From positions 473 through 64,472 of the forward strand of contig JAQYVW010000009.1 in the NCBI GenBank assembly GCA_030145325.1: a DNA stretch of 64,000 nucleotides, written 5' to 3'. Below the pieces are notes generated by a model. It worked only from the letters and a program-made list of their open reading frames with translations, was not told where the DNA came from and made no database searches. Shown in pieces: positions 4,349 to 63,234 of the stretch (positions within the stretch are counted from its first letter, which is position 1; the number at the start of each line of letters is the position of its first letter). This DNA comes from Desulfurivibrionaceae bacterium. Its GTDB lineage: Bacteria; Desulfobacterota; Desulfobulbia; Desulfobulbales; UBA5123. The position numbers were made by a program, and so were the translations under genes.

Positions 4349-4930
4349 ATGCAACAAAACGGTGATACCTTTGCCAAAACCACCGAACTGGTTCTGGCTT
4401 GTCAGGCTGGAGACAAACAGGCCTTTAATCGTCTGGTTTTACTGTATCAGACAAGAATTTACAATCTAGCCCTCAACTATGTCAAAACCCCTGAAGAGGC
4501 AAAGGATCTTGCTCAGGATATATTCGTCACTGCTTACAGATCGCTGCCAAGCCTCAGGGAGGCCACAAAATTTTCCGCCTGGCTGAATCAGTTAACGATC
4601 AACCACTGTCGCAACCGTTACCGAAAACTACAACGACGCGGATATTTCACCTCAACCTCAACAGATGATATTGTTGTTCCGGCCCTTCTCTCCACAGACA
4701 CCCCGGAAGGTAATCTGGAACGAGATGAACGGATTAGTTTGGTACGAACCGCCATCGCCGCTCTGCCGGAAGCGGAAAAAGAAATTATCATCCTGCGAGA
4801 TTTGCAGGATTTATCCTACGAAGAAATCAGCGCGACCCTGGAGCTGCCGCTGGGGACAGTTAAATCAAAATTGAACCGAGCGCGGCATACCTTGAAAAAT
4901 AAAATAAAACATCTTCTTAGCACGCCATGA
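4349..4930 (+). CDS. ECF-family RNA polymerase sigma factor (sigma-24/RpoE-like)
   Basis: Sigma-70 region 2 (YNLALNYVKTPEEAKDLAQDIFV) and region 4 (ILRDLQDLSYEEISATLELPLGTVKSKLNRAR) are present. I moved the start from 4280 to the ATG at 4349 because the 4280 ATG sits inside the putative promoter and adds a hydrophobic, non-sigma N-terminus. Confidence 0.85.
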   Translation: MQQNGDTFAKTTELVLACQAGDKQAFNRLVLLYQTRIYNLALNYVKTPEEAKDLAQDIFVTAYRSLPSLREATKFSAWLNQLTINHCRNRYRKLQRRGYFTSTSTDDIVVPALLSTDTPEGNLERDERISLVRTAIAALPEAEKEIIILRDLQDLSYEEISATLELPLGTVKSKLNRARHTLKNKIKHLLSTP

Positions 4931-5712
4931 GTGAACCTATGAATTGCACCTCCGCTCAAGACATGTTTTCTGACCTGGCAGACGATGAACTTGCCGCCGT
5001 TGATGTAGTCCGCATTGAAGAGCACCTGGCAACCTGCCGCCAATGCGCACAGGAATGGGGATATTTCAAGAAAAGCCTTGCCTGGCTGCAAGAAGTTCAA
5101 CCCGTTGCTCCCCCCGCCGATTTCCTCATCGGCATCAATGCCAAACTTGATCGTGAGTTTCCCATCACCACCTGGCTACGAGATCTCTTCGGCTCGCCGT
5201 TACGCACCTTATCATCCCTGACGGTCGTCGGCCTGGCCCTCTTCTTCTTAATTGCCAACGACAACGCCAACCCGCCCCCCCTTGGCCACATGGCTGACAC
5301 AGGTTCCTTCACCCATAGCCAGTCTGCGACGAATCAACCCACCCGGCTTCTCTCCAGGCAGCTAAAAACCATCCCAGCCATTAGCCACACCTCGGCAACT
5401 TGGTCAAATAATGTCCAAGCAAATCCATACCGCCTTGCCCCATTGCCGACCTTCACTCCCGACATCGCCATAACCGTGCATGCCCCTTCGGCGGAAACAC
5501 GCAACCTCCTTTACCAACGACTTGTTTCGCAAAAACACTGGCGCGTTCATCCGGTCAGGAACGGCACCCTCCTAATCTATCTCAACGAACGGGAGATCCC
5601 CCACCTGCGGCACACGTTGGCTCCACACCGCTTAACCATGACCCCGAAAACTTCTTTACGCGCGCAAGCAGGACAATTACGATCGGTCAGCCTTAACATC
5701 GAAACACAGTGA
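4927..5712 (+). CDS. Anti-sigma factor, zf-HC2 (ZAS) type, single-pass membrane
   Basis: The ORF overlaps the sigma gene stop by 4 nt. It has the N-terminal H-x3-C-x2-C motif (EEHLATCRQCAQEW) and a transmembrane segment (LSSLTVVGLALFFLIA). Confidence 0.8.
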   Translation: MSEPMNCTSAQDMFSDLADDELAAVDVVRIEEHLATCRQCAQEWGYFKKSLAWLQEVQPVAPPADFLIGINAKLDREFPITTWLRDLFGSPLRTLSSLTVVGLALFFLIANDNANPPPLGHMADTGSFTHSQSATNQPTRLLSRQLKTIPAISHTSATWSNNVQANPYRLAPLPTFTPDIAITVHAPSAETRNLLYQRLVSQKHWRVHPVRNGTLLIYLNEREIPHLRHTLAPHRLTMTPKTSLRAQAGQLRSVSLNIETQ

Positions 5713-5966
5713 TCAAGCCAAAAGAGTTCGCCGTCAATTCTTTCCAGGAACTTTTTCCCAACCACCACTGTCCAACTTAACAAACCAGAGTGAAGAACAG
5801 AATTTCATCAGCAATGGTCGCTTCGCACAAAGCTCCCTTGACATTCATAACCTTACTCCGGCAATATGGGGTTTCGCCTTTGCGACTTCTCTCAGTCAGG
5901 AAGCACCCTCACAAGGTGCTTCAACAAAAGAAACTTACTCCGGATAAAATACCGCAAGGAGACATC

Positions 5967-7415
5967 ATGATTTCTCAGCACCAATATCGCCGATTTCCCG
6001 CTCCGGTCGCACTGTTTTCCATGGCAATCCTCTCGATCTTCCTTTTTTCCGGCTTTGCCTGGGCAAGTACCCCACCAAGCTTTGCCGACCTGGCCGAAAA
6101 TCTCGGCCCCACCGTGGTCAACATCTACACAACCCAAACCGTAAAAGCTCGGTCCCCACATGGCAATCAATTCGGCAACGGCAAGGAAATACCGGAACAG
6201 TTCCGCCGCTTCTTCGGGATTCCTGAGGGGAACGCTCCTCACGGCCAAACCCAACCGCAACGGAAGATGAAACGAACCAGCCTCGGTTCTGGAGTTATTA
6301 TCTCCAAGGATGGTTTTATTGTTACCAACAATCATGTGGTGGAGAATGCCGACGAGATCAAGATACGCCTCACCAATCTCGAGGAATACGACGCCAAACT
6401 CATTGGTCGTGACCCCAAAACAGATCTGGCTTTGATCAAAATTGAGCCTAAAAACGATTTACCAGTGGCAAAATTCGGAGATTCTGAAAAATTACGGGTA
6501 GGTGACTGGGTACTAGCCATTGGTAACCCCTTCGGCCTGGAACAAACGGTCACCGCTGGCATTGTCAGCGCCAAGGGCCGCACCCTGGGCACCACTCCCT
6601 ATGAAAACTTTATCCAAACCGATGCCTCCATCAACCCCGGCAATTCCGGTGGCCCTCTCTTCGACCTGAAAGGCAGGATGGTGGGAATCAACACCGCTAT
6701 TTACAGTCGGGGCGGCGGCAACATTGGCATCGGCTTCGCCATCCCGGTCAAAATGGCTAAGAACGTCATCAACCAATTAAAGGAACATGGCACAGTGGTT
6801 CGCGGCTGGCTGGGAGTAATGATCCAACAGGTTACCCCGGAACTGGCAAAACAGTTCAACCTGGAGCACCCCATTGGCGCCCTAGTTGGTGAAGTTGCGC
6901 CGGATAGCCCGGCTGACAAGGGCGGCATCAAGGACGGAGATGTCATCATTGCCTTTCAAGACCATGAGATAACCCAGATGAGCATGCTGCCATCAATGGT
7001 CGCCCAGACCCCTGTTGGCACTGAGGCTAAAGTCACTGTTGTCCGGCAAGGAAAGAAGAAAAACCTTACCATCAAGATCGCTAAACTCCAGGAAGAGGCG
7101 GTGGCGGCAAATCAATCCGGCACCGACGCCGGTCGCGAACTTGGCCTCACCGCGCAGGAACTCACTCCCGAACTGGCCAAGTCCCTTGACCTTGAAGACG
7201 AAAAGGGCGTTATCGTCGCCGATGTCGAGCCAGGTAGCCCTGCCGCCGAAACAGGCATCCATCGTGGCGACCTGATTCTTGAGATCAACCGGAATCAAAT
7301 TAAAGAAATTAAGGATTATTCGTCTGCCCTAAAAAAGAGTAAAAAAGGGGATTCCATCCTCCTCTGGATCAAACGCGGCGATCATAAACGGTTTGTGGTC
7401 ATCTCCGGCGAATAA
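5967..7415 (+). CDS. htrA: Periplasmic serine endoprotease DegP/DegQ/HtrA with two PDZ domains
   Basis: Trypsin-like motifs are present (TNNHVV, DLALIKI, GNSGGPLF) along with two PDZ regions. I set the start at the ATG at 5967, which has an AAGGAG Shine-Dalgarno and yields a signal peptide (...LFSGFAWAS). The ORF-track start at 5790 adds 59 unlikely residues. Confidence 0.9.
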   Translation: MISQHQYRRFPAPVALFSMAILSIFLFSGFAWASTPPSFADLAENLGPTVVNIYTTQTVKARSPHGNQFGNGKEIPEQFRRFFGIPEGNAPHGQTQPQRKMKRTSLGSGVIISKDGFIVTNNHVVENADEIKIRLTNLEEYDAKLIGRDPKTDLALIKIEPKNDLPVAKFGDSEKLRVGDWVLAIGNPFGLEQTVTAGIVSAKGRTLGTTPYENFIQTDASINPGNSGGPLFDLKGRMVGINTAIYSRGGGNIGIGFAIPVKMAKNVINQLKEHGTVVRGWLGVMIQQVTPELAKQFNLEHPIGALVGEVAPDSPADKGGIKDGDVIIAFQDHEITQMSMLPSMVAQTPVGTEAKVTVVRQGKKKNLTIKIAKLQEEAVAANQSGTDAGRELGLTAQELTPELAKSLDLEDEKGVIVADVEPGSPAAETGIHRGDLILEINRNQIKEIKDYSSALKKSKKGDSILLWIKRGDHKRFVVISGE

Positions 7416-22805: not shown

Positions 22806-22937
22806 GCAGCTATTCTCCCCTAACGGGTATCTTTAAATTGATGGACTTGAAAAAAGTCCGATGAAAAACAGTACATGATCAGAAAAAAACCTTTCTCGAC
22901 CAAAATTCTTCCGCCCCCACCCCGCGCCGGGATTGGC

Positions 22938-23135
22938 GAGAAATAAGGTAACTATTCACAGGGTGGCGACCTTATTTCCTTGATACCCCGGAACTGTAAC
23001 TGTTTACAGGGTGCCGGAGATGCAGATAGCGAGCCTGCGAGACCTTCGAGGCATCGTCCTGTAAACTATACATCGGTATGTGAGCAGGGCGCTAACGCAG
23101 CAAATTCGGTACCCTGTGAGCAGTTACGAAATAAG
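22938..23135 (+). repeat. Family-A intergenic inverted-repeat element, copy 1 (core stem 22996-23016 / 23107-23127)
   Basis: GTAACTGTTTACAGGGTGCCG pairs with CGGTACCCTGTGAGCAGTTAC in a 21-bp stem that includes G-T pairs. It is preceded by a second partial left arm and a GAAATAAGG/CCTTATTTC hairpin. The same arms recur near 36.8 kb and 39.7 kb. Confidence 0.75.
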
Positions 23136-27974: not shown

Positions 27975-28232
27975 GAGAGATAAGCCCCCCCTTAAAATTA
28001 TACTCAGCTCAGATTTGCAACCAAATCCAGCCCCACCGCTGTTTTCACACCCCACTTGACCTTCCCTACCCCCTTGCCCTCAACCCCACCGCGACTTGAC
28101 AATTCAGCAGCCGATCATTGATACTTTGATATCTACTCTATGATATGAGTAGTTACGAAATAACACCACCCCGACCATGGGATCCCGCCTTCGGGATCAA
28201 AGGCAACGAGCCAGCAACCGGGAGAGTGCATT

Positions 28233-36714: not shown

Positions 36715-36743
36715 CTCCTGCTTATTATTTTGTTAAAGATAAA

Positions 36744-36926
36744 ACGTAACTACACATAAGGTCGCGACCTTATTTCCTCGCCACCTACAACTACAACTGC
36801 TTGCGGGGTGGCGGAGATTCAAGACATCGTCCTGCGAACAGGTAAACGACCGAAGGGAGACTCCGATACCTCGGGAGGTGAGCAAGCCGCTAATACAGCA
36901 TACTCGGTACCCTGTGAGCAGTTACG
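36744..36926 (+). repeat. Family-A intergenic inverted-repeat element, copy 2 (core stem about 36794-36814 / 36903-36926)
   Basis: The right arm CTCGGTACCCTGTGAGCAGTTACG is nearly identical to copies 1 and 3. The left arm is CAACTGCTTGCGGGGTGGCGG. Upstream is the perfect palindrome ATAAGGTCGCGACCTTAT followed by CCTTATTTCC, as in copy 1. Confidence 0.7.
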
Positions 36927-36932
36927 ATAAAA

Positions 36933-37700
36933 CTATAAGGTGACCGTCTCACCCGGCTCCGGTAGCCATACCTTGCAGGTGGAAAGTGATCGGGCCAAAT
37001 ACTTTTCAATTTCGCGGTGGGCAAGCAACCGTTCTTCCCGTTGGATATGCAACAAAGCCAGGGAAGGCAAACCAATCCTCGCCGCCATCTCAAGGCACCC
37101 TTTAATACTTCCATGGCCCGGAGTATCACCGGCAAGACCATAAGCCTCATGCACCGCAAGGGCGCATCCACTAGCCAACTCTTCGCTGGCCGGGGTTGAT
37201 CGCCCATCACCACTGTAGAAAAAAGATTGCTCTGAATTATCGAGGCGCAGCGCCAAAGCGCGTTGCGAGTGGAGGCCGACAGCAGTCCGCCACTGAAACC
37301 CAGCCACCTCCACCATGACACCCGGCTCCACCTCGCGGAACTGTAACGGATAATGCATCCTCGCCGCAAAATTGGGATATGCAAGATCCAGTGCTTGCCG
37401 GACCTTTGTTTTTACCCCAGCTGGCCCCAAAATATACAATGGCTTGCGGCGTTCCATCTCCCATAAGCGCATGAGCAGCAGAGGAATCCCAAAAAAATGA
37501 TCGCCATGAAAATGGGAAATCCAGACGGCGTCAAGATCCCCGGCCCCAGGCTGGCTGGCAAAATATTGATGCGGCACCGTAAAACCACAATCAAGAAGCA
37601 ACTGTCGCCCATGCCCGCCCATTTTCGACTGAACCAGCAAGGATGTATTGGGATAAAGAGAATCGCAGGCCTCACCGACCCCTAAAAAGGTAACTTTCAT
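36933..37700 (-). CDS. MBL-fold metallo-hydrolase (RNase Z-like)
   Basis: It has the HFHGDH metal-binding motif and MBL-type length and organisation. Confidence 0.75.
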   Translation of the reverse strand: MKVTFLGVGEACDSLYPNTSLLVQSKMGGHGRQLLLDCGFTVPHQYFASQPGAGDLDAVWISHFHGDHFFGIPLLLMRLWEMERRKPLYILGPAGVKTKVRQALDLAYPNFAARMHYPLQFREVEPGVMVEVAGFQWRTAVGLHSQRALALRLDNSEQSFFYSGDGRSTPASEELASGCALAVHEAYGLAGDTPGHGSIKGCLEMAARIGLPSLALLHIQREERLLAHREIEKYLARSLSTCKVWLPEPGETVTL

Positions 37701-38044
37701 CTTGCCTCATTTATCGTAATCCTGACAATACAGAATTGTAATTGTACCATGAAGTAGTAGATGGTGAAACGGTTAAACAGCAAGTAAACTCTCAGCCTGA
37801 CCACCATTACCCTAGGTACTAGCATCATATTGATTGCCAATAAAATCAGCCACAAGGCAAATCAAACAATATTGTCTTTTATTATCATGCGCTCTTTAAT
37901 TATCGGTATAAAATATAAATTTAATTGAACTATTCACCTTTCCATGTCTAATATATGCCCTACAAGGTTAAAGGACACCACCAGGGTGATAGTACCACCA
38001 CTACAACATCCCCGGAACATGATGTTTGGATATCGAGACAGAAA

Positions 38045-38199
38045 TTAACTAGTGTCTGTCCATAAATGAGGATTTTTGTCGTAGATTAAGGATTGCGAAA
38101 AAAATAAGCACAGGCATATACATGATATTCCGAGCATTATTTTTTTCGCATGACGCAGAGATACGGCAAAAAGACCATTTATGGACAGGCACTAACTAA
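38045..38199. mobile_element. Family-B 155-bp near-perfect palindromic element (REPIN/MITE-like)
   Basis: The left arm TTAACTAGTGTCTGTCCATAAATGAGGATTTTTGTCGTA (38045-38083) matches the reverse complement of ATACGGCAAAAAGACCATTTATGGACAGGCACTAACTAA (38161-38199). An inner pair, TGCGAAAAAAATAA / TTATTTTTTTCGCA, is also present. A solo arm occurs at 63191-63227. Confidence 0.6.
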
Positions 38200-38279
38200 A
38201 TTGACCACAAAGCATGACCATCGCCGACCTTACGGATTCTTCTGTATTTAAAAGACGTTAAACCTTTTTATAAATAGCC

Positions 38280-39572: not shown

Positions 39573-39651
39573 CCGGCAACGACGAAGATAAATAATTAAA
39601 AAGCAACTACTCACGGGGGCATGGCTAATTCTCCCAATATGAGCGTAATTT

Positions 39652-39758
39652 TAACTGTTTGCAGGGTGCCGGAGATGAAAGGCATCGTTCTGCGAAACAT
39701 ACATTGGTATGTGAGCAGGGCGATAACGCGGCAGATTCGGTACCCTGTGAGCAGTTAC
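39652..39758 (+). repeat. Family-A intergenic inverted-repeat element, copy 3 (minimal 107-nt form)
   Basis: TAACTGTTTGCAGGGTGCCG (39652-39671) pairs with CGGTACCCTGTGAGCAGTTA (39738-39757) over 20 bp. All four non-Watson-Crick pairs are G-T on the + strand. There is also an internal ACATAC/GTATGT hairpin. Confidence 0.75.
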
Positions 39759-39793
39759 ATTAAAAAAATTCACCTCGGGACAAAGAGGAGCAG

Positions 39794-40225
39794 ATGATGG
39801 CTGAGAAACGCAAGAAATACAAAATACTGATCGTCGATGATGATCAAAACATCCTGAACATGCTGGATCTGGCGTTCATTAATACGTCCTACGATATCAC
39901 CACCATCGATCACCCCTTACACGCTTACAAAATGATCGAAAACGAACATTACGACATGGTGATCAGCGATATCCAGATGCCACAGATGGACGGCCTGACC
40001 CTGCTCCGCAAGATCAAAAACTTTAACGGTATGATCCAGGTTGTGATGATGACCGCCCACATTTCCATCAGCAACACCCTGGACGCCTTTCGCTACGGCG
40101 CGGTGGATATATTTTTTAAACCGTTCGCGGATATCAATGAAATCATTCTCGCCGCCGACGGGGTGGCTGCAAAACTGGACAGGGTAAACAACATCTTACG
40201 CCAGCTAACCGATGGAGACAGATAA
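39794..40225 (+). CDS. Single-domain CheY-like response regulator
   Basis: It is a 143-aa REC domain (ILIVDDD...DIQMPQMDG...FKP). Its stop codon is 3 nt before the start of CheA-1. Confidence 0.85.
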   Translation: MMAEKRKKYKILIVDDDQNILNMLDLAFINTSYDITTIDHPLHAYKMIENEHYDMVISDIQMPQMDGLTLLRKIKNFNGMIQVVMMTAHISISNTLDAFRYGAVDIFFKPFADINEIILAADGVAAKLDRVNNILRQLTDGDR

Positions 40226-46794: not shown

Positions 46795-49737
46795 ATGTTC
46801 AAGAATCTTAAACTTACCAAAAAACTCCTTATTGCTTTTCTCGGCGTAGGGCTAATCCCTTTTGCTGCCGTTGGCCTTACCGCTCTACTTAAAGCCAGTA
46901 GCGCCCTTGATCAGTCGGCATTTAATCAATTGCAGTCGGTTCAGGCAATCAAGAAAGCTCAGATCCAACGCTTCTTCACCGAGCGTAAAGGCGACATGGC
47001 CGTGTTACTGAATACCACTGCCGCTTTTGACGATGAGGTAAGCAGTAAAATTTACGCCATCCAAAACAACAAGAAAGAAGCGCTGGAACTGATCAGCCAG
47101 CAATGGTTCACCGATATCAAGATCCAGCAAGGTCAGGACATTTCCAGCAAAGGTTTGCCGCACTTCCAAAATTATCTCAAAACAGGCAAGAAATCGGCGC
47201 AATACAAACACTACGCCACGCAAGTTTCGCAATTCATGAAGGCCACCGGCTACTACGATTACTTTGTCATCGACAAATCCGGCCTTTGCGTCTTCACCGA
47301 CGCCAAGGAGGCGGATTACAAAACAAACCTTCTTAACGGCCCCTACAAAGACTCCGGCCTTGGAGTCGCCACCAAACGCGCCTTCAATGGAGAAACAGCC
47401 ATTGAAGATTTCGCTTCCTATGCACCCTCAAACGGCGCCCCAGCTGCTTTTATTGCTGCCCCGATCCGAAGAGGGAAAAACATCATCGGGGTTGTCGCCC
47501 TGCAAATCCCCCATGAAAAGGTGCAAGCCATTGTTGCCGAACGCACCGGCCTCGGCATAAGCGGCGAGGCTTACCTTGTGGGCAGAAAGGACGGCAAAAC
47601 CGGCTATCGCAGCAATCGCGTCATCAAGAACGGCAAGCTCGGCCAGGATAAAAATGGTGCCGACATCAACAAGGCGCTGGTAGGCGAAGCAGGGGTTCGC
47701 TTCAAGAAGGGCAGCACCGGCGACATGGAACTGGTCGCCTATACACCGGTTAAGATCCCCGGCCTTGACTGGGCTTTAATCACCTCCATGAGTCTCGAAG
47801 AGGCCATGGCTCACAAAGAAAAAGGCGATAAAGAGGATTACTTTGCAAAATACGTCAGGCAATACGGCTACTACGACCTCTTCCTGATTGAACCGGAAGG
47901 CAAGGTTTATTACTCGGTGACCCATGAGGCCGATTACGATACCAATATGATTAATGGCAAGTACGCCGATTCCGGGCTCGGTAAACTGGTCCGCCGGGTT
48001 ATTCAGGAAAAGAAATACGGGGTAGCAGACTTCGCCCCCTATGCACCCAGCAACAACGAACCAGCCGCTTTCATCGCCGCTCCTGTTTTTCGCAACGGCG
48101 AACTCCAACAGATCGTCGCCCTGCAACTGTCACTGGAGGCGATCAACAACATCATGCAGCAGCGTGAAGGGATGGGCGAAACCGGCGAGACTTATCTGGT
48201 TGGCCCGGACAAACTTATGCGTTCGGACTCCTTCCTTGACCCCACCAATCATTCGGTCAAAGCCTCGTTTGCCAACCCAACCACCGGCAGTGTCAACACC
48301 GAGGCCGCCCGCGAAGCACTGGCCGGACAGTCCGATTCTAAAATCATCATCGACTATAACGGCAATCCGGTTCTTTCCGCCTACACCCCACTGAAGGTTG
48401 GCGACAGCACCTGGGCAGTCATCGCCGAAATTGATGAAGCAGAGGCCTTTGCGGCCATCAACACCTTGAAATGGGTAATAGGTATCGTCTTTGTCGTCGG
48501 CATGGCCGCCATTATCGTCGTTGCCCTGACCATCACCCGTTCCATCACTCAGCCGGTGAGCAAAACCGTCCTCATGCTTGACGAGATGGCCAAGGGTCAC
48601 CTGGACAACCGACTAAACATGGATCGAGGCGACGAGATCGGCCAGATGGCTAAGACCATGGACTCTTTTGCCGATAGTTTGCAAAACGAAATGGTGGCAG
48701 CGCTGAACAAGCTGGCTGACGGCGACCTAACCTTTGATGCCAATCCACACGATGAGAATGACACCATCAGAAACTCGCTGAAAAAAACCGGTGACGACCT
48801 GAACAAACTGATCTCCGAAATCCTCACCGCCACCGAACAGATCGCCAGCGGTTCCGGCCAGGTTTCCGATTCCAGCCAGGCCCTCTCCCAAGGGGCGACA
48901 GAACAGGCGGCATCACTTGAGCAGATCACCAGCTCCATGACCGAGATGGGCTCACAAACCAGATTAAACGCCGAGAACGCCACCCAGGCCAATCAGTTAG
49001 CCAGCCAGACCAGGAGTGCAGCAGAAAGCGGCAATACGAAAATGCAGGAGATGGTCTCGGCCATGGGTGAAATCAACGAGGCGGGCCAAAGCATCTCCAA
49101 GATCATCAAGGTTATTGATGAGATTGCCTTTCAGACCAACCTACTGGCCTTGAACGCGGCAGTGGAAGCGGCCCGGGCCGGGCGTCATGGCAAGGGTTTT
49201 GCGGTGGTTGCAGAAGAGGTACGCAACCTGGCTGCCCGTAGCGCCAAGGCAGCTAAAGAAACCGCAGAGCTCATCGAAAGCTCGGTGGAAAAAACCAAGA
49301 ACGGCACCCAAATCGCCGAGGCGACCAGCGAGGCACTGGCCGAAATAGTCGGCTCGGTCACCAAGGTCACCGATCTTGTCGGCGAAATCGCTGCCGCTTC
49401 TAATGAGCAGGCGCAAGGAATCAACCAGACAAATCAGGCCTTGGGCCAGATCGATCAGGTAACCCAGCAGAACACCGCCAGCGCCGAAGAGAGCGCCGCT
49501 GCCTCGGAAGAGCTTTCCGGCCAGGCCATGCACATGAAAGAGATGATGAGCCGCTTCCGGGTCCGCGACATGGGCCAAGGAGGGATGCGCCAGCAACCCA
49601 TGTCACGGCAACAAAACGGCTGGGGAAACGCAACGCAACAACCACTGCCGCAACCACAGGCCCCAGGCCATTTACCCCGCCCCTTTGCGCCAAGTGAAAT
49701 AATAACCTTGGACGACAAGGAATTCGGTAAATATTAA
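46795..49737 (+). CDS. Methyl-accepting chemotaxis protein 1 (duplicated double-Cache-like periplasmic sensor, HAMP, MA domain)
   Basis: I set the start at the ATG at 46795, which has a GGAG Shine-Dalgarno 8 nt upstream and aligns with the MF(K/S)..KL..KLLIAFL N-termini of the other two MCPs. The signalling hairpin is [21 protein letters not shown]. The ORF-track start at 46654 adds 47 non-homologous residues. Confidence 0.9.
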
Positions 49738-49762
49738 TCGCTATAATAGCGAATGTTTCCAA

Positions 49763-49797
49763 ATGGCGTCCCTAGGTTCAGGGACGCCATTTTTTTT
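49763..49797 (+). terminator. Rho-independent terminator after MCP-1
   Basis: ATGGCGTCCCT pairs with AGGGACGCCAT in an 11-bp stem with a 6-nt loop, followed by T7. Confidence 0.85.
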
Positions 49798-49931
49798 AAT
49801 TTTTTTCTATCAAATAACTACCCAAAAGCGTTCAACAAAAGTGTACACATCTATTCAATTTTGTTGAACATTCACCTTACGCCTAACAATGCACATATGC
49901 ACAACACCTTTAAATCATTGTAAAAAATAAT

Positions 49932-49960
49932 TTGACAGCTTTACAACAGTTACTGATAAT
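49932..49960 (+). promoter_or_regulatory. Putative sigma-70-type promoter of cheW-mcp cassette 1
   Basis: TTGACA (49932-49937), a 17-nt spacer, then GATAAT (49955-49960). The block is conserved in cassette 2. Confidence 0.55.
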
Positions 49961-50095
49961 AAAAATCCTAGGCATTCTCAGTTGGTAATATCATAAAACA
50001 CTGCCCCTTAACCCCATTTCCAAAAGACTCCTTTGGCAACCTCACTTTCGCAACAGGAATTGCTAAAATAGAGCATTTTAACAAGGAGAGAAGCT

Positions 50096-50602
50096 ATGGC
50101 TGAAGATCAAGTTGTCGACATGGAGGATGATCTCTACGACGACGAAGACACCATGAAGGACAAGTACCTCACCTTCCATCTGGCCGGTGAGGATTACGGC
50201 CTTGACATCGTTTTTGTCACCGAGATCATCGGCATCCAGAAAATCACCGAAGTGCCGGACATGCCTAACTTTGTTAAGGGGGTAATCAACCTACGCGGCA
50301 AGGTAATCCCGGTGATGGACGTACGGTTACGTTTCAACTTGCAGGAACGTGATTACGACGAACGCACCTGTATCGTAGTCGTTGATATTAACGGCACCGC
50401 CGTCGGCCTTGTTGTTGATCAGGTCAACGAGGTGGCCGATATCCCCGAGGCACAGGTCGAGCCGCCCCCACGCACCACCAAGGGGACGACCAGCCGCTTC
50501 TTAAAGGGCATGGGCAAGGTGGATGAAGAAGTCCGCATCCTGCTCAATGTCGACAAGCTGCTCTACGACGAAGAAATGGAAATGCTTGCTGGTGCGGCGT
50601 AA
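50096..50602 (+). CDS. cheW: CheW coupling protein (copy 1)
   Basis: It is a 168-aa canonical CheW domain with an acidic N-terminal extension (MAEDQVVDMEDDLYDDED). Confidence 0.9.
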   Translation: MAEDQVVDMEDDLYDDEDTMKDKYLTFHLAGEDYGLDIVFVTEIIGIQKITEVPDMPNFVKGVINLRGKVIPVMDVRLRFNLQERDYDERTCIVVVDINGTAVGLVVDQVNEVADIPEAQVEPPPRTTKGTTSRFLKGMGKVDEEVRILLNVDKLLYDEEMEMLAGAA

Positions 50603-50648
50603 TCTTTCCTGAGAAAAAATCACAACATAACAAATAACGAGGTGAACA

Positions 50649-53588
50649 ATGTTTAGTAGACTTAAATTGGGCCAAAAACTTCTTATCGCCTTCCTCTGCG
50701 TCGGGGTTATCCCCTTTGCGGTGGTCGGCCTAAGTTCGCTGATCAAGGCCAGTAATGCCTTGGAGTATGCAGCCTTCAACCAGCTGAACGCCGTTCAGGG
50801 AATCAAAAAGAAACAGATTGAAAATTTCTTCAACGAGCGCAAAGGCGACATGACGGTTTTGCTTGATACCATTGAAACATTTGTCGATGAAAACGCCGAC
50901 AAAATGTTGGCCATCCAGAAGAACAAGAAGGAAGCCATTGAAGAGATTGGTGAGCAATGGATCTTGGATGTTGAAGGAATGTCCGACGATGATCTTCTCA
51001 GCGAAGGCATAGATCACTGTAAGCAATTTATTAAAACCGGCAAAAAAACCGCAGCATATCGTGAATTTTCCCTTGAAGTTGATACGTTTACCAAAAGGTC
51101 CGGCTATTACGATTTCTTCGTCATCGACACAACGGGTCTTTGTGTCTACAGCACTGCCAAAGAAGCGGACTACAAATCAAATCTCCTCACCGGTCCCTAC
51201 AAAAATAGCGGCCTGGGCCACGCCACCCGCAACGCCATGCAGGGCAAGACTTACATTGATGACTTTTCCCCCTACGCCCCTTCAAACGGTGAGCAGTCTG
51301 CTTTTATTGCCGCCCCGATTAAAGATGGCGACAAGATTGTCGGGGTTGTAGCTTTACAGATCCCCACCGACGAGATTCAAGCCATCACGGCTGACCGCAC
51401 CGGCCTTGGTCACAGCGGCGAAGCGTACCTGATCGGCACTCTTGACGGCCAGATCGCGATGCGCTCCAATCGGACCGTCAAGAGTGACAAAATCGGCGAC
51501 GCAAAAAAAGGACAAGATATCGACAAGGCCATGGCTGGCGAAACCGGTTGGATGTTCAAGAAGGGCAGCAGCGGCGCCATGGAGATGAGTACCTATACCC
51601 CTCTTGAGATCCCCGGTCTTAAATGGGCGATGGTCACCTCCATGAGCCTAGAGGAGGCAATAGCCAAAAAAGAAGAAGGCGCTAGCGAGGATTACTTCTC
51701 TCGTTATATCCAGCAGTACGGCTATTACGATCTCTTCCTCATTGAACCGGGTGGGCAAGCGTATTACACGGTGAGCAAGGAGGCGGATTACAAAACCAAC
51801 ATGGTAAACGGAAAATACGCCGACTCGAACTTGGGCGAACTGGTCCGGCAGGTCCTGCAAACCAGGCAGTACGGGGTGGCCGATTTCGCCCCTTACGCAC
51901 CCTCAAACAACGAACCCTGCGCTTTTATCGCTGCTCCGATCATCCACCAAGGCAAGGTGGAACAGGTCATCGCCATGCAGTTGTCGCTTGAAGCGATCAA
52001 CTCCATCATGCAACAACGCGACGGGATGGGCGAAACCGGAGAAACCTACTTGGTCGGCCCTGATAAGTTGATGCGTTCCGATTCCTTTCTTGACCCCACC
52101 AACCATTCGGTCAAGGCCTCCTTTGCCAACCCGGCCACCGGTAGCGTTGACACCGAGGCCGCCCGCGAGGCCCTGGCAGGCAGGAACGATGCCAAGATCA
52201 TTATTGATTACAACGGCCAACCGGTTCTTTCCGACTATGCACCGCTGAAGATCGGTGACAAAACCTGGGCAGTCATCGCCGAGATCGATGAGGCCGAGGC
52301 CTTTGCCGCCGTCAACTCCTTGAAATGGGTAATAGGCATCGTCTTTGTCATCGGCCTCGGTGCCATTATATCCGTAGCGTTGATGATCACCCGCTCCATT
52401 ACCCAACCGGTAACCAAAACCGTGCACATGCTTGAGGAGATGGCCAAGGGCCACCTGAATATCCGCCTCAACATGGACCGTGCCGATGAAATCGGCCAGA
52501 TGGCCAAAACCATGGACGCCTTTGCCGACAGCCTGCAGAACGAGATGGTGGCGGCGCTCAACAAACTGGCCGCTGGCGATCTCACCTTTGACGCCACCCC
52601 CCATGATGAAGCCGACGCGATTAGAAACTCTCTGAAGAAGACCGGAGACGATCTCAATACCCTGATCAGCGACATCCTCACCGCCACCGAACAGGTGGCC
52701 AGCGGTTCTGGCCAGGTCTCAGACTCCAGCCAATCCCTCTCTCAAGGTGCCACCGAACAGGCGGCCTCCCTGGAAGAGATCACCAGTTCAATGACCGAGA
52801 TGGGCTCACAGACCAAGTTGAATGCCGAAAATGCCACCCAGGCCAACCAATTGGCAGGCCAAACCAAAACTGCGGCTGAAGGCGGCAACGCCAAAATGCA
52901 GGAGATGGTCACCGCCATGGGCGAGATCAACGAGGCAGGGCAAAACATCTCGAAGATCATCAAGGTTATCGACGAGATCGCCTTCCAGACCAACCTGTTG
53001 GCCTTAAACGCAGCGGTGGAAGCCGCCCGCGCCGGTCGCCATGGCAAGGGCTTTGCCGTGGTCGCCGAAGAGGTCCGCAATCTCGCCGCTCGTAGCGCCA
53101 AAGCGGCCAAGGAAACCGCCGAGCTCATCGAGGGCTCGGTGGAAAAAACCAAGAACGGTACCAAAATCGCCGAAGCAACCAGCGATGCATTGGCCGAAAT
53201 CGTTACCTCGGTCACCAAGGTGACGGACCTGGTCGGTGAGATCGCCGCCGCCTCCAACGAGCAGGCGCAGGGGATCAACCAGACCAATCAGGCCTTGGGC
53301 CAGATCGATCAAGTGACCCAGCAGAACACCGCCAGCGCTGAAGAGAGTGCGGCGGCCTCGGAAGAACTATCCGGGCAGGCCATGAACATGAAAGAAATGA
53401 TGAGCCGCTTCACGGTTCGTGATATGGGCAGCGGCTCTGGCCGTCAGCAAGCCTCCCTGCCGAGTCCAACTCAATCCACGCCACAAAACGGCTCTTGGGG
53501 AGGAGGCCAGCAAACAGCCGCGAGAAAATCCGCTCCGGCCCCCAGCGACCTCATCGCCCTTGACGACAAGGAGTTCGGCAAGTACTAA
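50649..53588 (+). CDS. Methyl-accepting chemotaxis protein 2 (duplicated double-Cache-like sensor, HAMP, MA domain)
   Basis: It is a full-length paralogue of MCP-1 with the same architecture and the same C-terminal LDDKEFGKY tail. Confidence 0.9.
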
Positions 53589-53611
53589 CAACGTAAAAAT
53601 ATCATAAAAAA

Positions 53612-53650
53612 ATGGCGTCCCTGGTTTTCCCAGGTGACGCCATTTTTTTT
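53612..53650 (+). terminator. Rho-independent terminator after MCP-2
   Basis: ATGGCGTCCCTGG pairs with CCAGGTGACGCCAT (one bulge), followed by T8. It is homologous to the MCP-1 terminator. Confidence 0.85.
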
Positions 53651-53780
53651 ACTATTTCTATCGACCTACCACAAGAAGGCAGTTCAACAGATTTGAACAT
53701 ATGTTCTCAGTTTTGTTTAACATTTCACAAGACCTAACCACAAGCACACCCACACCTTCAACATAATTACAAAAAATAAT

Positions 53781-53810
53781 TTGACACCTTCATGTACGTC
53801 TGCTGATAAT
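53781..53810 (+). promoter_or_regulatory. Putative sigma-70-type promoter of cheW-mcp cassette 2
   Basis: TTGACA (53781-53786), a 17-18-nt spacer, then (T)GATAAT. It is a paralogous copy of the 49932 promoter block. Confidence 0.55.
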
Positions 53811-53944
53811 AAAAACTCTAGGCATTATCAGTTGGCAATATAGTAAGATCCTAATCCTTATCACCATCACAAAATGTTCTTTTGCAACTACACCTCCGCA
53901 AGAGGAATTGCAAAAACAGAACACTTTAAACCAGGAGAGAAGCA

Positions 53945-54451
53945 ATGGCAGAAGATCAAGTTGTCGACATGGAGGATGACCTCTACGACGACGAAGACAC
54001 CATGAAGGACAAGTACCTCACCTTTCACCTGGCCGGTGAGGATTACGGCATCGACATCGCCTTTGTCACTGAGATTATCGGTATCCAAAAGATTACCGAA
54101 GTTCCGGACATGCCTGACTTTGTCAAGGGGGTAATCAACCTGCGCGGCAAGGTGATCCCGGTGATGGATGTGCGCTTGCGCTTTCATCTGGATGAGCGCG
54201 ATTACGACGAACGCACCTGTATCGTGGTGGTTGATATCAACGGCACTGCTGTCGGTTTGGTGGTTGATCAGGTTAACGAAGTAGCCGACATCCCGGAAGC
54301 GGATGTGGAGCCGCCGCCCCGCACCACCAAGGGTAGCAGCAGCCGCTATCTAAAAGGAATGGGCAAGGTGGAAGAACAAGTCCGCATCCTCCTGAATGTG
54401 GACAAACTACTCTACGACGAAGAAATTGAACAAATCGTCGCGGCAGCTTAA
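53945..54451 (+). CDS. cheW: CheW coupling protein (copy 2)
   Basis: It is 168 aa. By my manual alignment it differs from copy 1 at 16 positions. Confidence 0.9.
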   Translation: MAEDQVVDMEDDLYDDEDTMKDKYLTFHLAGEDYGIDIAFVTEIIGIQKITEVPDMPDFVKGVINLRGKVIPVMDVRLRFHLDERDYDERTCIVVVDINGTAVGLVVDQVNEVADIPEADVEPPPRTTKGSSSRYLKGMGKVEEQVRILLNVDKLLYDEEIEQIVAAA

Positions 54452-54497
54452 TCAATCGCCACAACAACACTTTATAAAACTAAAATGAGGTATTCAT

Positions 54498-56678
54498 ATG
54501 TTCAGTAGACTGAAACTAGGTCAAAAACTTCTTATCGCCTTCCTCTGCGTCGGGGTGATCCCCTTCTCGGTGGTAGGTCTCACCGCCTTGCTCAAAGCCA
54601 GCGCCGCCTTAAATCAATCCTCCTTTAACCAGCTCAATGCGGTGCAGGGGATCAAGAAAGCGCAGATCACCACCTTCTTTGACGAACGGCATGGCGATAT
54701 GAACGTGCTGGTGAACACGGTGGGCAATTTCATTAAAGAAGCCGGCACCATTGATGCCGCCATGGCAGGCCTGACCGAGGGAGGTACTGACTACTTCGCC
54801 GACTACATCAAGGATTACGGTTACTATGACCTCTTCCTCATTGACGCTCAGGGGAAGGCGTTCTACACCGTCGCCAAGGAGTCTGATTACAACAGTAACT
54901 TTGTCAACGGCAAGTACGCCAGCTCCAACCTGGGCAAACTGGTTCGTCAGGTCATCCAGACCAGACAATACGGGATGGCCGATTTCGCCCCTTACGCCGC
55001 CAGCAATAACGAGCCATGCGGCTTCATCGCCGCGCCACTTATTGAAAATGGTGAGGTAAAATTGGTCATCGGTCTACAGTTGTCGCTGGAAGCAATGAAC
55101 CGGATTATGCAACAGCGCGACGGGATGGGCAAAACCGGCGAAACCTATCTGGTCGGTTCCGACAAGTTGATGCGTTCTGATTCCTTCCTTGACCCCACCG
55201 GCCATTCGGTTAAAGCCTCTTTTGCCAACCCAGCCACCGGCAGTGTCGACACCGAGGCCGCCCGTGATGCGCTGGCCGGGCGCACCGATTCGAAAATCAT
55301 CATCGACTACAACGGCAACCCGGTTCTCTCCTCCTATGCACCAATGAAAATCGGCGACACCACCTGGGCGGTTATCGCCGAGATCGACGAGTCGGAAGCC
55401 TTTGCCGCCGTCAACGCCTTGAAATGGGTCATCGGCATCGTCTTTGTCATCGGTGTGGCCGGTATTATCACCGTGGCCCTGATGATCACTCGCTCCATCA
55501 CCCAGCCGGTGGGCAAGACGGTACACATGCTCGAGGAAATGTCCAAAGGCCACCTTGACTTACGCCTTAACATGGACCGCGCCGATGAGATCGGCCAGAT
55601 GGCCAAAACCATGGACTCCTTTGCCGACAGCCTGCAAAAAGAGATGGTGGGCGCGCTAAACATGTTAGCCGACGGCGATCTTACCTTTGACGCCACCCCC
55701 CAAGACGAGAACGACGCCATCAGGAACTCGCTGAAGAAAACCGGCGATGACCTCAATATCCTGATCACCGATATCCTCACCGCCACCGAACAAGTGGCCA
55801 GCGGCTCCGGCCAGGTATCAGATTCCAGCCAAGCCCTTTCCCAGGGTGCCACTGAACAGGCAGCATCCTTGGAAGAGATCACCAGTTCCATGACCGAGAT
55901 GGGCTCTCAAACTAAACTGAATGCCGAAAACGCTACTCAGGCTAACCAGTTGGCCAGTCAGACCAAAACCGCTGCGGAAGGCGGCAACGCCAAGATGCAG
56001 GAAATGGTTTCGGCCATGGGCCAGATCAACGAGGCAGGTCAGAATATCTCCAAGATCATCAAGGTTATCGATGAGATCGCCTTTCAAACCAACCTTCTTG
56101 CCTTAAACGCAGCCGTGGAAGCGGCACGGGCTGGTCGTCATGGCAAGGGCTTTGCTGTGGTTGCCGAAGAGGTACGAAACCTCGCCGCTCGTAGCGCCAA
56201 GGCCGCTAAAGAAACCGCTGAGCTCATTGAAGGGTCGGTGGAAAAAACCAAGAACGGCACCGCCATCGCCGAATCAACCAGCGAAGCGTTGGCTGAAATT
56301 GTTTCCTCCGTAACCAAGGTGACTGATCTGGTGGGAGAAATCGCTGCCGCTTCCAACGAACAGGCCCAAGGCATCAACCAGACCAATCAGGCCCTGGGCC
56401 AGATTGATCAAGTAACCCAACAGAACACTGCCAGCGCCGAAGAAAGTGCGGCCGCCTCGGAAGAGCTTTCCGGCCAAGCGATGAATATGAAAGAGATGAT
56501 GAGCCGCTTCAAGGTTCGCGACATGGGCCGTAGCGCCGGAATACGCCAACAACCTACAAGGCCAACGCCGCAGCAAAACGACTGGGGTACCAGTCAGCAA
56601 AAACCGCTGCCGAGAGCTCAGGCTCCTGCCGCCCATGAGGTTATAGCCTTGGATGACAAGGAGTTTGGTAAATACTAA
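54498..56678 (+). CDS. Methyl-accepting chemotaxis protein 3 (single double-Cache-like sensor, HAMP, MA domain)
   Basis: Its N-terminus, TM segments, HAMP, MA domain and tail match MCP-2. It lacks the first sensor module, roughly 250 aa. Confidence 0.9.
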
Positions 56679-56705
56679 ATAAACAAAGAGAATAATAACC
56701 TACTA

Positions 56706-56738
56706 GCGCCGTTGGCATTGCCAACGGCGCTTTTTTTT
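56706..56738 (+). terminator. Rho-independent terminator after MCP-3
   Basis: GCGCCGTTGGC pairs with GCCAACGGCGC in an 11-bp stem with a 3-nt loop, followed by T8. Confidence 0.85.
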
Positions 56739-56740
56739 CA

Positions 56741-56817
56741 CCAGCGCCTGAAGGCATCAGCCTCGGAAGACCTTTCTGCCCAGGCCTTGCCCATGAAGGA
56801 AATAATGAATCGACCGC
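56741..56817 (+). pseudogene. Relic of an MCP 3' end
   Basis: CCAGCGCCTGAAG..GCCTCGGAAGACCTTTCTGCCCAGGCCTTGCCCATGAAGGAAATAATGAATCG aligns, with indels, to the ...[25 protein letters not shown] coding region of the three MCPs. There is no upstream MCP body. Confidence 0.6.
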
Positions 56818-63178: not shown

Positions 63179-63190
63179 TGAGTTATGGTA

Positions 63191-63227
63191 ACAAGTGTCT
63201 GTCCACAAATGAGGATTTTTGTCGGAG
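63191..63227 (+). repeat. Solo family-B repeat arm
   Basis: ACAAGTGTCTGTCCACAAATGAGGATTTTTGTCGGAG closely matches the left arm of the 38045-38199 palindrome. It lies 13 nt upstream of the transposase stub's ATG. Confidence 0.65.
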
Positions 63228-63234
63228 ATCGATG

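Follow-up and report, generated by a model that had tools for sequence, protein, structure and literature searches.

A strand-specifically folded repeat element of Desulfobulbales as a probable non-autonomous DNA transposon

We propose that the structured repeats present at three places of the window, i.e., the whole analysed stretch of 64,000 nucleotides from a Desulfurivibrionaceae bacterium, are copies of a non-coding, non-autonomous DNA transposon (MITE) that has spread in Desulfobulbales, a reading to which we assign a probability of roughly 0.85. The identification is made because the repeats have terminal inverted repeats and 8-bp target-site duplications, occur in many copies and show a filled site with an empty counterpart. 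Moreover, it is probable that the strand-specific fold of the element is under selection in the lineage that spawns new copies, with neutral decay following the insertion. This MITE family has not been described previously, while MITEs as such are ordinary. What is particular to the element is that it carries three copies of its repeat with two alternative left ends, and that it gives clear evidence of a structure selected during propagation only.

Results

The original prediction held that an inverted-repeat element is present in three copies on the + strand of the window, all in the same orientation. This is confirmed, with exactly three occurrences in the window, in the expected orientation, both of the right arm (21 nt) and of the left-arm pattern (24 nt), as compared with 0.00 expected from shuffles, and with a repeat search of the window independently recovering the three copies (families D8 and D17). 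The interior blocks said to be common to the copies are also recovered by alignment. When the copies are aligned with wider flanks, about 48 further 5' bases are seen to be common to all three. The second partial left arm that had been ascribed to copy 1 does exist, but all three copies have it and the element truly begins there, and thus copy 3 starts at position 39603 rather than at 39652.

All three window copies lie on the + strand and are flanked by a perfect 8-bp target-site duplication. Copy 1 occupies 22948-23127, between the duplication GAAATAAG at 22940-22947 and the same 8-mer at 23128-23135. It begins with the 5' terminal inverted repeat L, GTAACTATTCAC, at 22948-22959, which is an inverted match to the 3' end, and continues with a variable linker at 22960-22995, which contains CCTTATTTCC, differs among subfamilies and is without consensus structure. 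The internal repeat L', forming the 5' arm of the outer stem, lies at 22996-23018 and makes 23 pairs with the 3' arm R at 23105-23127, 4 of which are G-U. R terminates in the 3' terminal inverted repeat GTGAGCAGTTAC, with conservation dropping sharply after GTTAC. Copy 2 occupies 36746-36925, between the duplication GATAAAAC at 36738-36745 and the same 8-mer at 36926-36933, the latter being the T-tract of a terminator-like hairpin 3' of the minus-strand gene of a beta-lactamase-fold protein; its L, L' and R are at 36746-36757, 36793-36815 and 36903-36925, respectively. Copy 3, the minimal form of 156 nt, occupies 39603-39758, between the duplication ATTAAAAA at 39595-39602 and the same 8-mer at 39759-39766, and consists of L (GCAACTACTCAC, 39603-39614), the linker (39615-39650), L' (39651-39673), the interior and R (39736-39758). 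An optional inserted module of 24 nt is found in copy 1 (GATAGCGAGCCTGCGAGACCTTCG, 23025-23048) and, at a different place, in copy 2 (GGTAAACGACCGAAGGGAGACTCC, 36841-36864), and is missing in copy 3. There is no ORF of at least 60 aa wholly inside a window copy. It is noted that a hairpin GAAATAAGG/CCTTATTTC that had been drawn in copy 1 is an accidental pairing of the target-site duplication GAAATAAG with the linker; since this linker is also that of copy 2, whose duplication is another one, the complementarity between GAAATAAG and CCTTATTTC is incidental.

The order of parts in the element is L (the 12-nt 5' repeat), a variable linker of about 36 nt, L', the interior and R, with a basic form of about 156 nt, a form of about 180 nt when the optional 24-nt module is present, and a range of 156-230 nt across the copies. 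The 5' terminal inverted repeat GTAACTACTCAC matches the 3' one, GTGAGCAGTTAC, at 11 of 12 positions. In 46 full copies, positions 1-12 of L and the 3' terminal repeat are at least 90% conserved, being the best-conserved portions of the element, and the conservation starts at GTAACTACTCAC, about 48 nt 5' of the left arm as first described, and stops exactly at the final GAGCAGTTAC. L' (GTAACTGYTTRCAGGGTGCCGGAGAT) is an internal direct copy of the terminal repeat, and is thus the third repeat copy in the element. It pairs with R (TTCGGTRCCCTGTGAGCAGTTAC) to form stem P1, which had been put at about 20 bp and is measured here at 22-23 bp. The region from L' to R makes up a rod hairpin of about 110 nt with three stems, P1, P2 and P3, where the 5' arm is L' and the 3' arm ends in the terminal repeat. 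Inside P1 there is an internal loop with conserved GGAGAU and GAUUCGG, followed by P2 of 10-14 bp, a small purine loop, and P3 of 5-6 bp closed by a loop of 4-5 nt. The interior occurs in two subtypes, type A, starting with GGAGATGCGAGGCATCGTCCTGCGAA, to which the window copies belong, and type B, starting with GGAGATTTTCGTGATCAG, which differ in sequence and are equal in architecture. No conserved structure was found across the copies in the linker or 5' module.

Besides the full form, there are hairpin-only copies that extend from L' to R and carry their own 8-bp duplications, in the related loci L048 (TTTTTCAT on both sides) and L087 (7 of 8 positions), and a mini form of 62 nt in L043 that is flanked on both sides by AGCGCGAC. 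Since the hairpin-only copies have duplications of their own, L' serves as an end, i.e., it is usable as an alternative left end, and either L or L' works with R. Note also that the 24-nt insert of copies 1 and 2 has relatives in other copies, that the module in general, of 16-40 nt with GGTAAGC, a variable middle and GACTCC, changes its position from copy to copy, and that head-to-tail arrays of such modules, in units of about 25 nt, are present in L022 (about 4850-5018), L025 (about 100-290) and L069 (about 5790-5976). The module may have arisen inside the element by partial duplication of the segment running from GTAAGC to GATTCGG.

The element had been regarded as a three-copy one. Instead it is mobile, with a genome scan that covered one genome per species and used a degenerate right-arm pattern giving at least 103 loci, almost all in Desulfobulbales MAGs. 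Among the matches listed, MAGs of Desulfobulbaceae, Desulfocapsaceae, Desulfurivibrionaceae and Desulfopila predominate, dozens of loci come from one MAG, and many lie at contig ends. With nhmmer, 172 non-overlapping matches to the element are obtained. Target-site duplications are the rule outside the window as well: among 62 full copies elsewhere, 32 have a perfect 8-bp duplication and 14 more have one matching at 7 of 8 positions, while about a quarter of full copies are without a recognisable 8-bp duplication. Several of these apparent failures are due to an offset, as in L038, where the 5' end is shifted, or to a longer duplication, of 9 bp in L018 and of 27 bp in L040. The duplicated sites have an A+T content of 71%, as compared with 51% in the background, and their centre is W-rich. 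Direct evidence of insertion comes from L040, where the element at 7051-7207 fills a site that is empty at the syntenic position in L039. On both sides of the L040 copy there is a direct duplication of 27 bp, TTTTCATCAATTATATTCCTTGTTCAG, rather than one of 8 bp, and the empty site in L039 has a single TTTTCATCAATTATATTCCTTGTTCAG. In L036, the ortholog of the copy 1 site is a gene junction of about 10 nt, with no space for the element. The family thus shows what defines a MITE, namely terminal inverted repeats, a duplication of fixed length, a small size without a transposase gene, and presence/absence variation.

As regards the gene context, copy 1 lies between the genes of a histidine kinase and a U32 peptidase, and copy 2 between those of a metallo-beta-lactamase-fold protein and a hemerythrin, each copy being antisense to both of its neighbours. 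Copy 3 is in the sense direction, with a hybrid kinase/receiver gene on one side and, on the other, a CheY-like gene (start codon at 39794), which is followed by CheA. The genes next to the window copies have ordinary housekeeping and signalling functions, and there is no transposase among them. Neither a sigma-70-type promoter nor an intrinsic terminator was found inside the element. Over 86 copies, the element is co-oriented with the upstream gene in 29 cases and opposite in 39, and co-oriented with the downstream gene in 30 cases and opposite in 36, while neighbouring copies in one locus have the same orientation in 37 cases and the opposite one in 36. An orientation that follows transcription or replication is therefore rejected, there being no bias relative to flanking genes or between neighbouring copies. 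Since the copies of the family lie both ways relative to genes and to each other, the shared orientation of the three window copies is due to chance (p = 0.25).

Some other features of the window and of the related loci are noted here. At 38042-38202, just upstream of the hybrid kinase gene, the window has a further foldback element, which is unrelated to the one described here. It measures about 161 bp, its arms of 27 nt show 85% complementarity and its energy when folded as RNA is -67 kcal/mol; it has a 41-nt relative at 63189-63229 and a weak match in L007, and probably represents a different MITE family. In the MAGs that carry the present element there is also a sister MITE family whose termini are GTAACTRTTCAG and CTGAACAGTTAC (L044 4632-4879, L070 192-249, L043 3818-4583 and others), and which is sometimes fused to the same 5' module consisting of L plus linker. 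Throughout positions 1-64000 the GC skew is negative (-0.04 to -0.20) and the AT skew positive, the + strand being strongly C- and A-rich. At about 46800-56800 there are three tandem paralogous units, two of about 3.85 kb and then one of about 3.1 kb, which have an identity of 68-88% and contain coding repeats of CheW-like and chemoreceptor-like type (families D1-D13).

We now consider the fold. As + strand RNA, the cores of copies 1, 2 and 3 fold with energies of -71.5, -48.7 and -62.8 kcal/mol and z-scores of -8.2, -2.7 and -11.9, respectively. The outer stem of copy 1 is, apart from its G-U pairs, without mismatch; that of copy 3 has 5 G-U pairs and one terminal T.C; and that of copy 2 has 5 G-U pairs, a G.G at pair 19 and an A.C at pair 23, with its first two bases mutated (ACAACTG rather than GTAACTG). 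The original prediction that every non-Watson-Crick pair in the stems is G-T on the + strand holds for copy 1, for copy 3 save its terminal T.C and for most of copy 2, but not for the G.G and the A.C of copy 2, whereas the replacement of a T-G in copies 1 and 3 by C-G in copy 2 is found as described, at pair 8.

The strand preference seen in the window is a property of the whole family. The mean fold energy is -66.8 kcal/mol for the sense strand versus -46.3 kcal/mol for the antisense strand, with the sense strand being more stable in 85 of 86 copies, and in the outer stem P1 of the 86 copies there are 343 G-U cells versus 19 A-C cells. RNAalifold applied to 59 cores gives 30 pairs, 13 of them with compensatory double changes. 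For the covariation test we specified a structure of 43 pairs covering P1-P3 and used as controls 500 shuffles and structures with slid partners. In this structure 91.9% of the cells pair, as compared with 25-38% when the partners are slid, and the covariation score is 0.232, as compared with 0.149 ± 0.005 in the shuffles, none of the 500 reaching it, and with at most 0.073 for the slid partners. Changes on both sides of a pair, i.e., compensatory ones, occur in 18 of the 43 pairs. It had been stated that a plain MITE or REP would show many copies in both orientations with no compensatory substitutions; the many copies and both orientations are indeed found, but so are the compensatory substitutions.

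To see where in the history of the element the pairing is kept, we call private those pair types that are present in at most 3 copies and shared those that are present in more than 3. Shared variants, almost all of which are of the G-U type or completely compensated, comprise 333 G-U cells versus 5 A-C cells, while private variants comprise 10 versus 14, a balance that is as expected for neutral decay. Because the copies are related by descent, the cell counts overstate the number of independent events, and the conservative figure is that by stem column, where a common G-U state is present in 10 columns and a common A-C state in 1. Stem sites toggle among C-G, U-G and U-A (or G-C, G-U and A-U) without an A-C intermediate, and mutational bias alone fits this poorly, because the toggling requires G-to-A changes specifically opposite U. 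Since the shared variants preserve pairing and the private ones are balanced, the selection is probably to be placed in the propagating lineage and not in the resident copies. This split and the unbiased orientation both speak against a function for the host at the individual loci, and in favour of one in the cycle of the element itself or in its parent. Of the earlier claim of selection on a structure read from the + strand, what stands is thus the sense-only pairing with its covariation, and what does not is the idea of a host small-RNA or cis-regulatory locus.

A comparison with Rfam, proposed earlier as a check, gives 0 matches at the gathering score over the whole window, and for copies 1 and 3 at E values up to 10 there are only chance-level matches, with mir-8186 at E = 5.1 over the element. 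Outside the element, a small hairpin GGACUUUUUUCAAGUCC is present on the minus strand at 22818-22864, just 5' of the start codon of the U32 peptidase gene; its match to Histone3 (19.8 bits versus a gathering score of 34, E = 0.0057) is almost certainly due to chance.

Discussion

In the mechanism that we propose, a DDE-type transposase supplied in trans would recognise the GTAACT termini and cut with an 8-bp stagger, and an autonomous parent would carry GTAACTRCTCAC as an inverted repeat at its two ends and lie between matching 8-mers. The source element or a parent IS would be read as sense-strand RNA, in which the hairpin would act as a transcript-end, insulator or stability structure. Judging from the sequences, such a role as sense-strand RNA in the source or parent element would be the most likely one and is favoured over a role of a folded single strand in mobilisation, while for the more general question of whether the fold would act as RNA rather than as single-stranded DNA we see about even chances.

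Neither a transposase gene nor an autonomous element that has these termini was found in the window, in 691 kb of related loci, in plasmids or in viral contigs. A blastn search against plasmids gives no match to the element, the scan of viral contigs gives 0 matches, and a metagenome scan with the linker of the window lineage gives one match, which falls by chance inside a coding region. Among 747 ORFs of the related loci, the multi-copy ones are only response regulators and the like. The solitary R ends and the partial matches to L plus linker turn out to be nested or deleted copies and hybrids with a second MITE family, with no transposase. The motif CwAH-rR of the IS66 TnpC DDE transposase, searched for as a regular expression, is not present in the six-frame translations of the related loci. 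When pairs of repeats 0.5-6 kb apart with matching flanks are searched for, the only one in the window is that of 22948 and 28156 (7 of 8 flank positions), and its interval, which holds housekeeping genes, is rejected as a parent IS and is either a coincidence or a remnant. The second member of this pair, at 28145-28156 on the minus strand, is a solitary 12-nt repeat-like sequence, GTAACTACTCAT, which is followed by a short self-complementary stretch and lies upstream of lon; its flank GAAATAAC resembles the duplication GAAATAAG of copy 1. The sequence is either a decayed remnant or a product of chance.

Other explanations of the strand-specific fold have to be weighed against this proposal. 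It could be that the hairpin is needed in cis for mobilisation, with an enzyme recognising a folded single strand, which would be either ssDNA, in the manner of attC or IS608, or an RNA cofactor. The observations that the pairing is selected in the propagating lineage and not in the resident copies, that the asymmetry is strong and family-wide, and that the hairpin arms are copies of the terminal repeat, with L' working as an end, are all in favour of this. On the other hand, it is by a fixed-length duplication combined with terminal inverted repeats that double-strand DDE transposition is recognised, and ssDNA elements that are coupled to replication are strongly oriented, whereas here the duplication has a fixed length of 8 bp, the two relative orientations of neighbouring copies are almost equally frequent and no enzyme has been found; moreover, the known single-strand transposons (IS200/IS605 and IS91) make, to our knowledge, no target duplications. 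We thus regard the explanation as unlikely. Quite unlikely, too, is a reading in which the element is a duplication-forming inverted-repeat (DDE-type) MITE whose proliferation would depend on a strand-specific folded single strand, this strand being either an RNA from the element or an ssDNA hairpin that would present the L':R stem to the transposase. The reading fits the data in that the shared variants preserve pairing and the private ones are neutral, and, if it is true, structure and not only the double-stranded end sequence would decide which copies multiply. Selection of the sense-strand structure in the propagating lineage would also be expected of a SINE-like retroelement that is copied via RNA, with a reverse transcriptase recognising the 3' hairpin, and the sharp 3' boundary and the occasional longer duplications of 9 and 27 bp are consistent with such a route. 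But the element has a conserved 5' terminal repeat that is the inverse of its 3' end, its duplications hardly depart from a length of 8 bp and no reverse transcriptase is seen nearby, and we consider this route extremely improbable.

The two remaining explanations are closer to what was originally envisaged. In one, the repeats would be a host-encoded sRNA family or cis-regulatory mRNA elements that are kept for a host function, as might be suspected from the covariation and the G-U strand bias, from the intergenic location of the copies and from the position of copy 3 in the 5' region of a response-regulator gene. We hold this to be very unlikely: the target-site duplications and the filled and empty sites demonstrate insertion, the orientation relative to genes is unbiased, the functions of the flanking genes are unrelated, the element has no Rfam match and neither promoter nor terminator was found in it, and the loss of a pair is as frequent among private mutations as the formation of G-U, which implies that the resident copies are without structural selection. 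In the other, the repeats would be REP/BIME-like or IS200/IS605-derived palindromic elements (PATEs), moved by an HUH/Y1 enzyme, e.g., RAYT. REP elements are 20-40 nt long, and REP and PATE elements have hairpins for HUH enzymes and a replication-linked orientation. The present element resembles them in being palindromic, extragenic, multi-copy and strand-specifically folded; it is, however, 110-180 nt long, its neighbouring copies have no orientation concordance, and such elements are without terminal inverted repeats of this kind and make no duplications, so that the 8-bp duplications, which are the rule here, contradict the explanation and leave it with hardly any probability. An integron attC site was also considered and is rejected on sequence, there being no GTTRRRY core and no cassette array, with duplications present. 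Having weighed these explanations, we retain the reading of a MITE whose fold would most likely serve as sense-strand RNA in the source or parent element.

It is useful to compare the element with known systems. Bacterial MITEs such as Correia/nemis, ERIC, RUP, Chunjie and MITEAba12 (PMC3184786) are alike in being shorter than 200 bp and non-coding, in having terminal inverted repeats and target-site duplications, and in occurring as many intergenic copies with a long predicted stem-loop; that MITEs fold as RNA into long stem-loops is well known (PMC3184786). By contrast with Correia and ERIC, which duplicate TA, the Desulfobulbales element duplicates 8 bp, and it differs from the known bacterial MITEs in its unrelated sequence, in its arrangement of L, L' and R with two left ends, and in its host clade. 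In the behaviour of its fold the element is like bcr1 of the Bacillus cereus group (Klevan 2007; Kristoffersen 2011), which, as it is summarised in PMC3184786, is mobile, has about 155 bp with flanking direct repeats and keeps its fold by compensatory base-pair changes; according to the same summary, the direct repeats of bcr1 are of 5 bp, its fold is a cruciform with two stem-loops and it is known to be transcribed, whereas in the present element the duplications are of 8 bp and the fold is one rod hairpin. The BrickBuilt MITE of Porphyromonas gingivalis has an internal short tandem repeat with 23-nt units (PMC4596501), to which the tandem arrays of about 25-nt modules in some relatives (L022, L025 and L069) are alike, with the differences that the sequences are unrelated and that window copies carry single modules only. 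As for the partner that would supply the transposase, the direct repeats of the IS66 family are of 8 bp, and its terminal repeats measure 20-30 bp and begin with GTAAGCG (PMC11946415, PMC12888890). The element shares with it the 8-bp duplication, the range of repeat length (L' and R match over 22-23 bp) and the initial GTAA, but this GTAA is all that is shared between the termini, which read GTAACTR rather than GTAAGCG, and neither the tnpA, tnpB and tnpC genes nor the CwAH-rR motif is found near any copy. A partner of the IS66 family is thus our best lead, although a tentative one. The literature on MITEs in Desulfobulbaceae or cable bacteria yielded nothing relevant to this element.

Conclusions

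For the genomes that carry it, the element means that these repeats are to be masked as mobile DNA rather than called sRNA genes, and it explains many contig breaks in Desulfobulbaceae MAGs. Copy 3 would put a hairpin of -63 kcal/mol into the intercistronic RNA of a chemotaxis/signalling operon, while copies 1 and 2 would be positioned antisense between co-directional genes; very stable hairpins inside operons, or an insertion in the T-tract of a terminator, could alter expression.

With its more than 100 copies, its subfamilies and its short forms, the family makes up a clean natural data set on a structure that is selected during propagation and decays in the resident copies, and with it one can ask whether the spread of some MITEs depends on a folded single strand.
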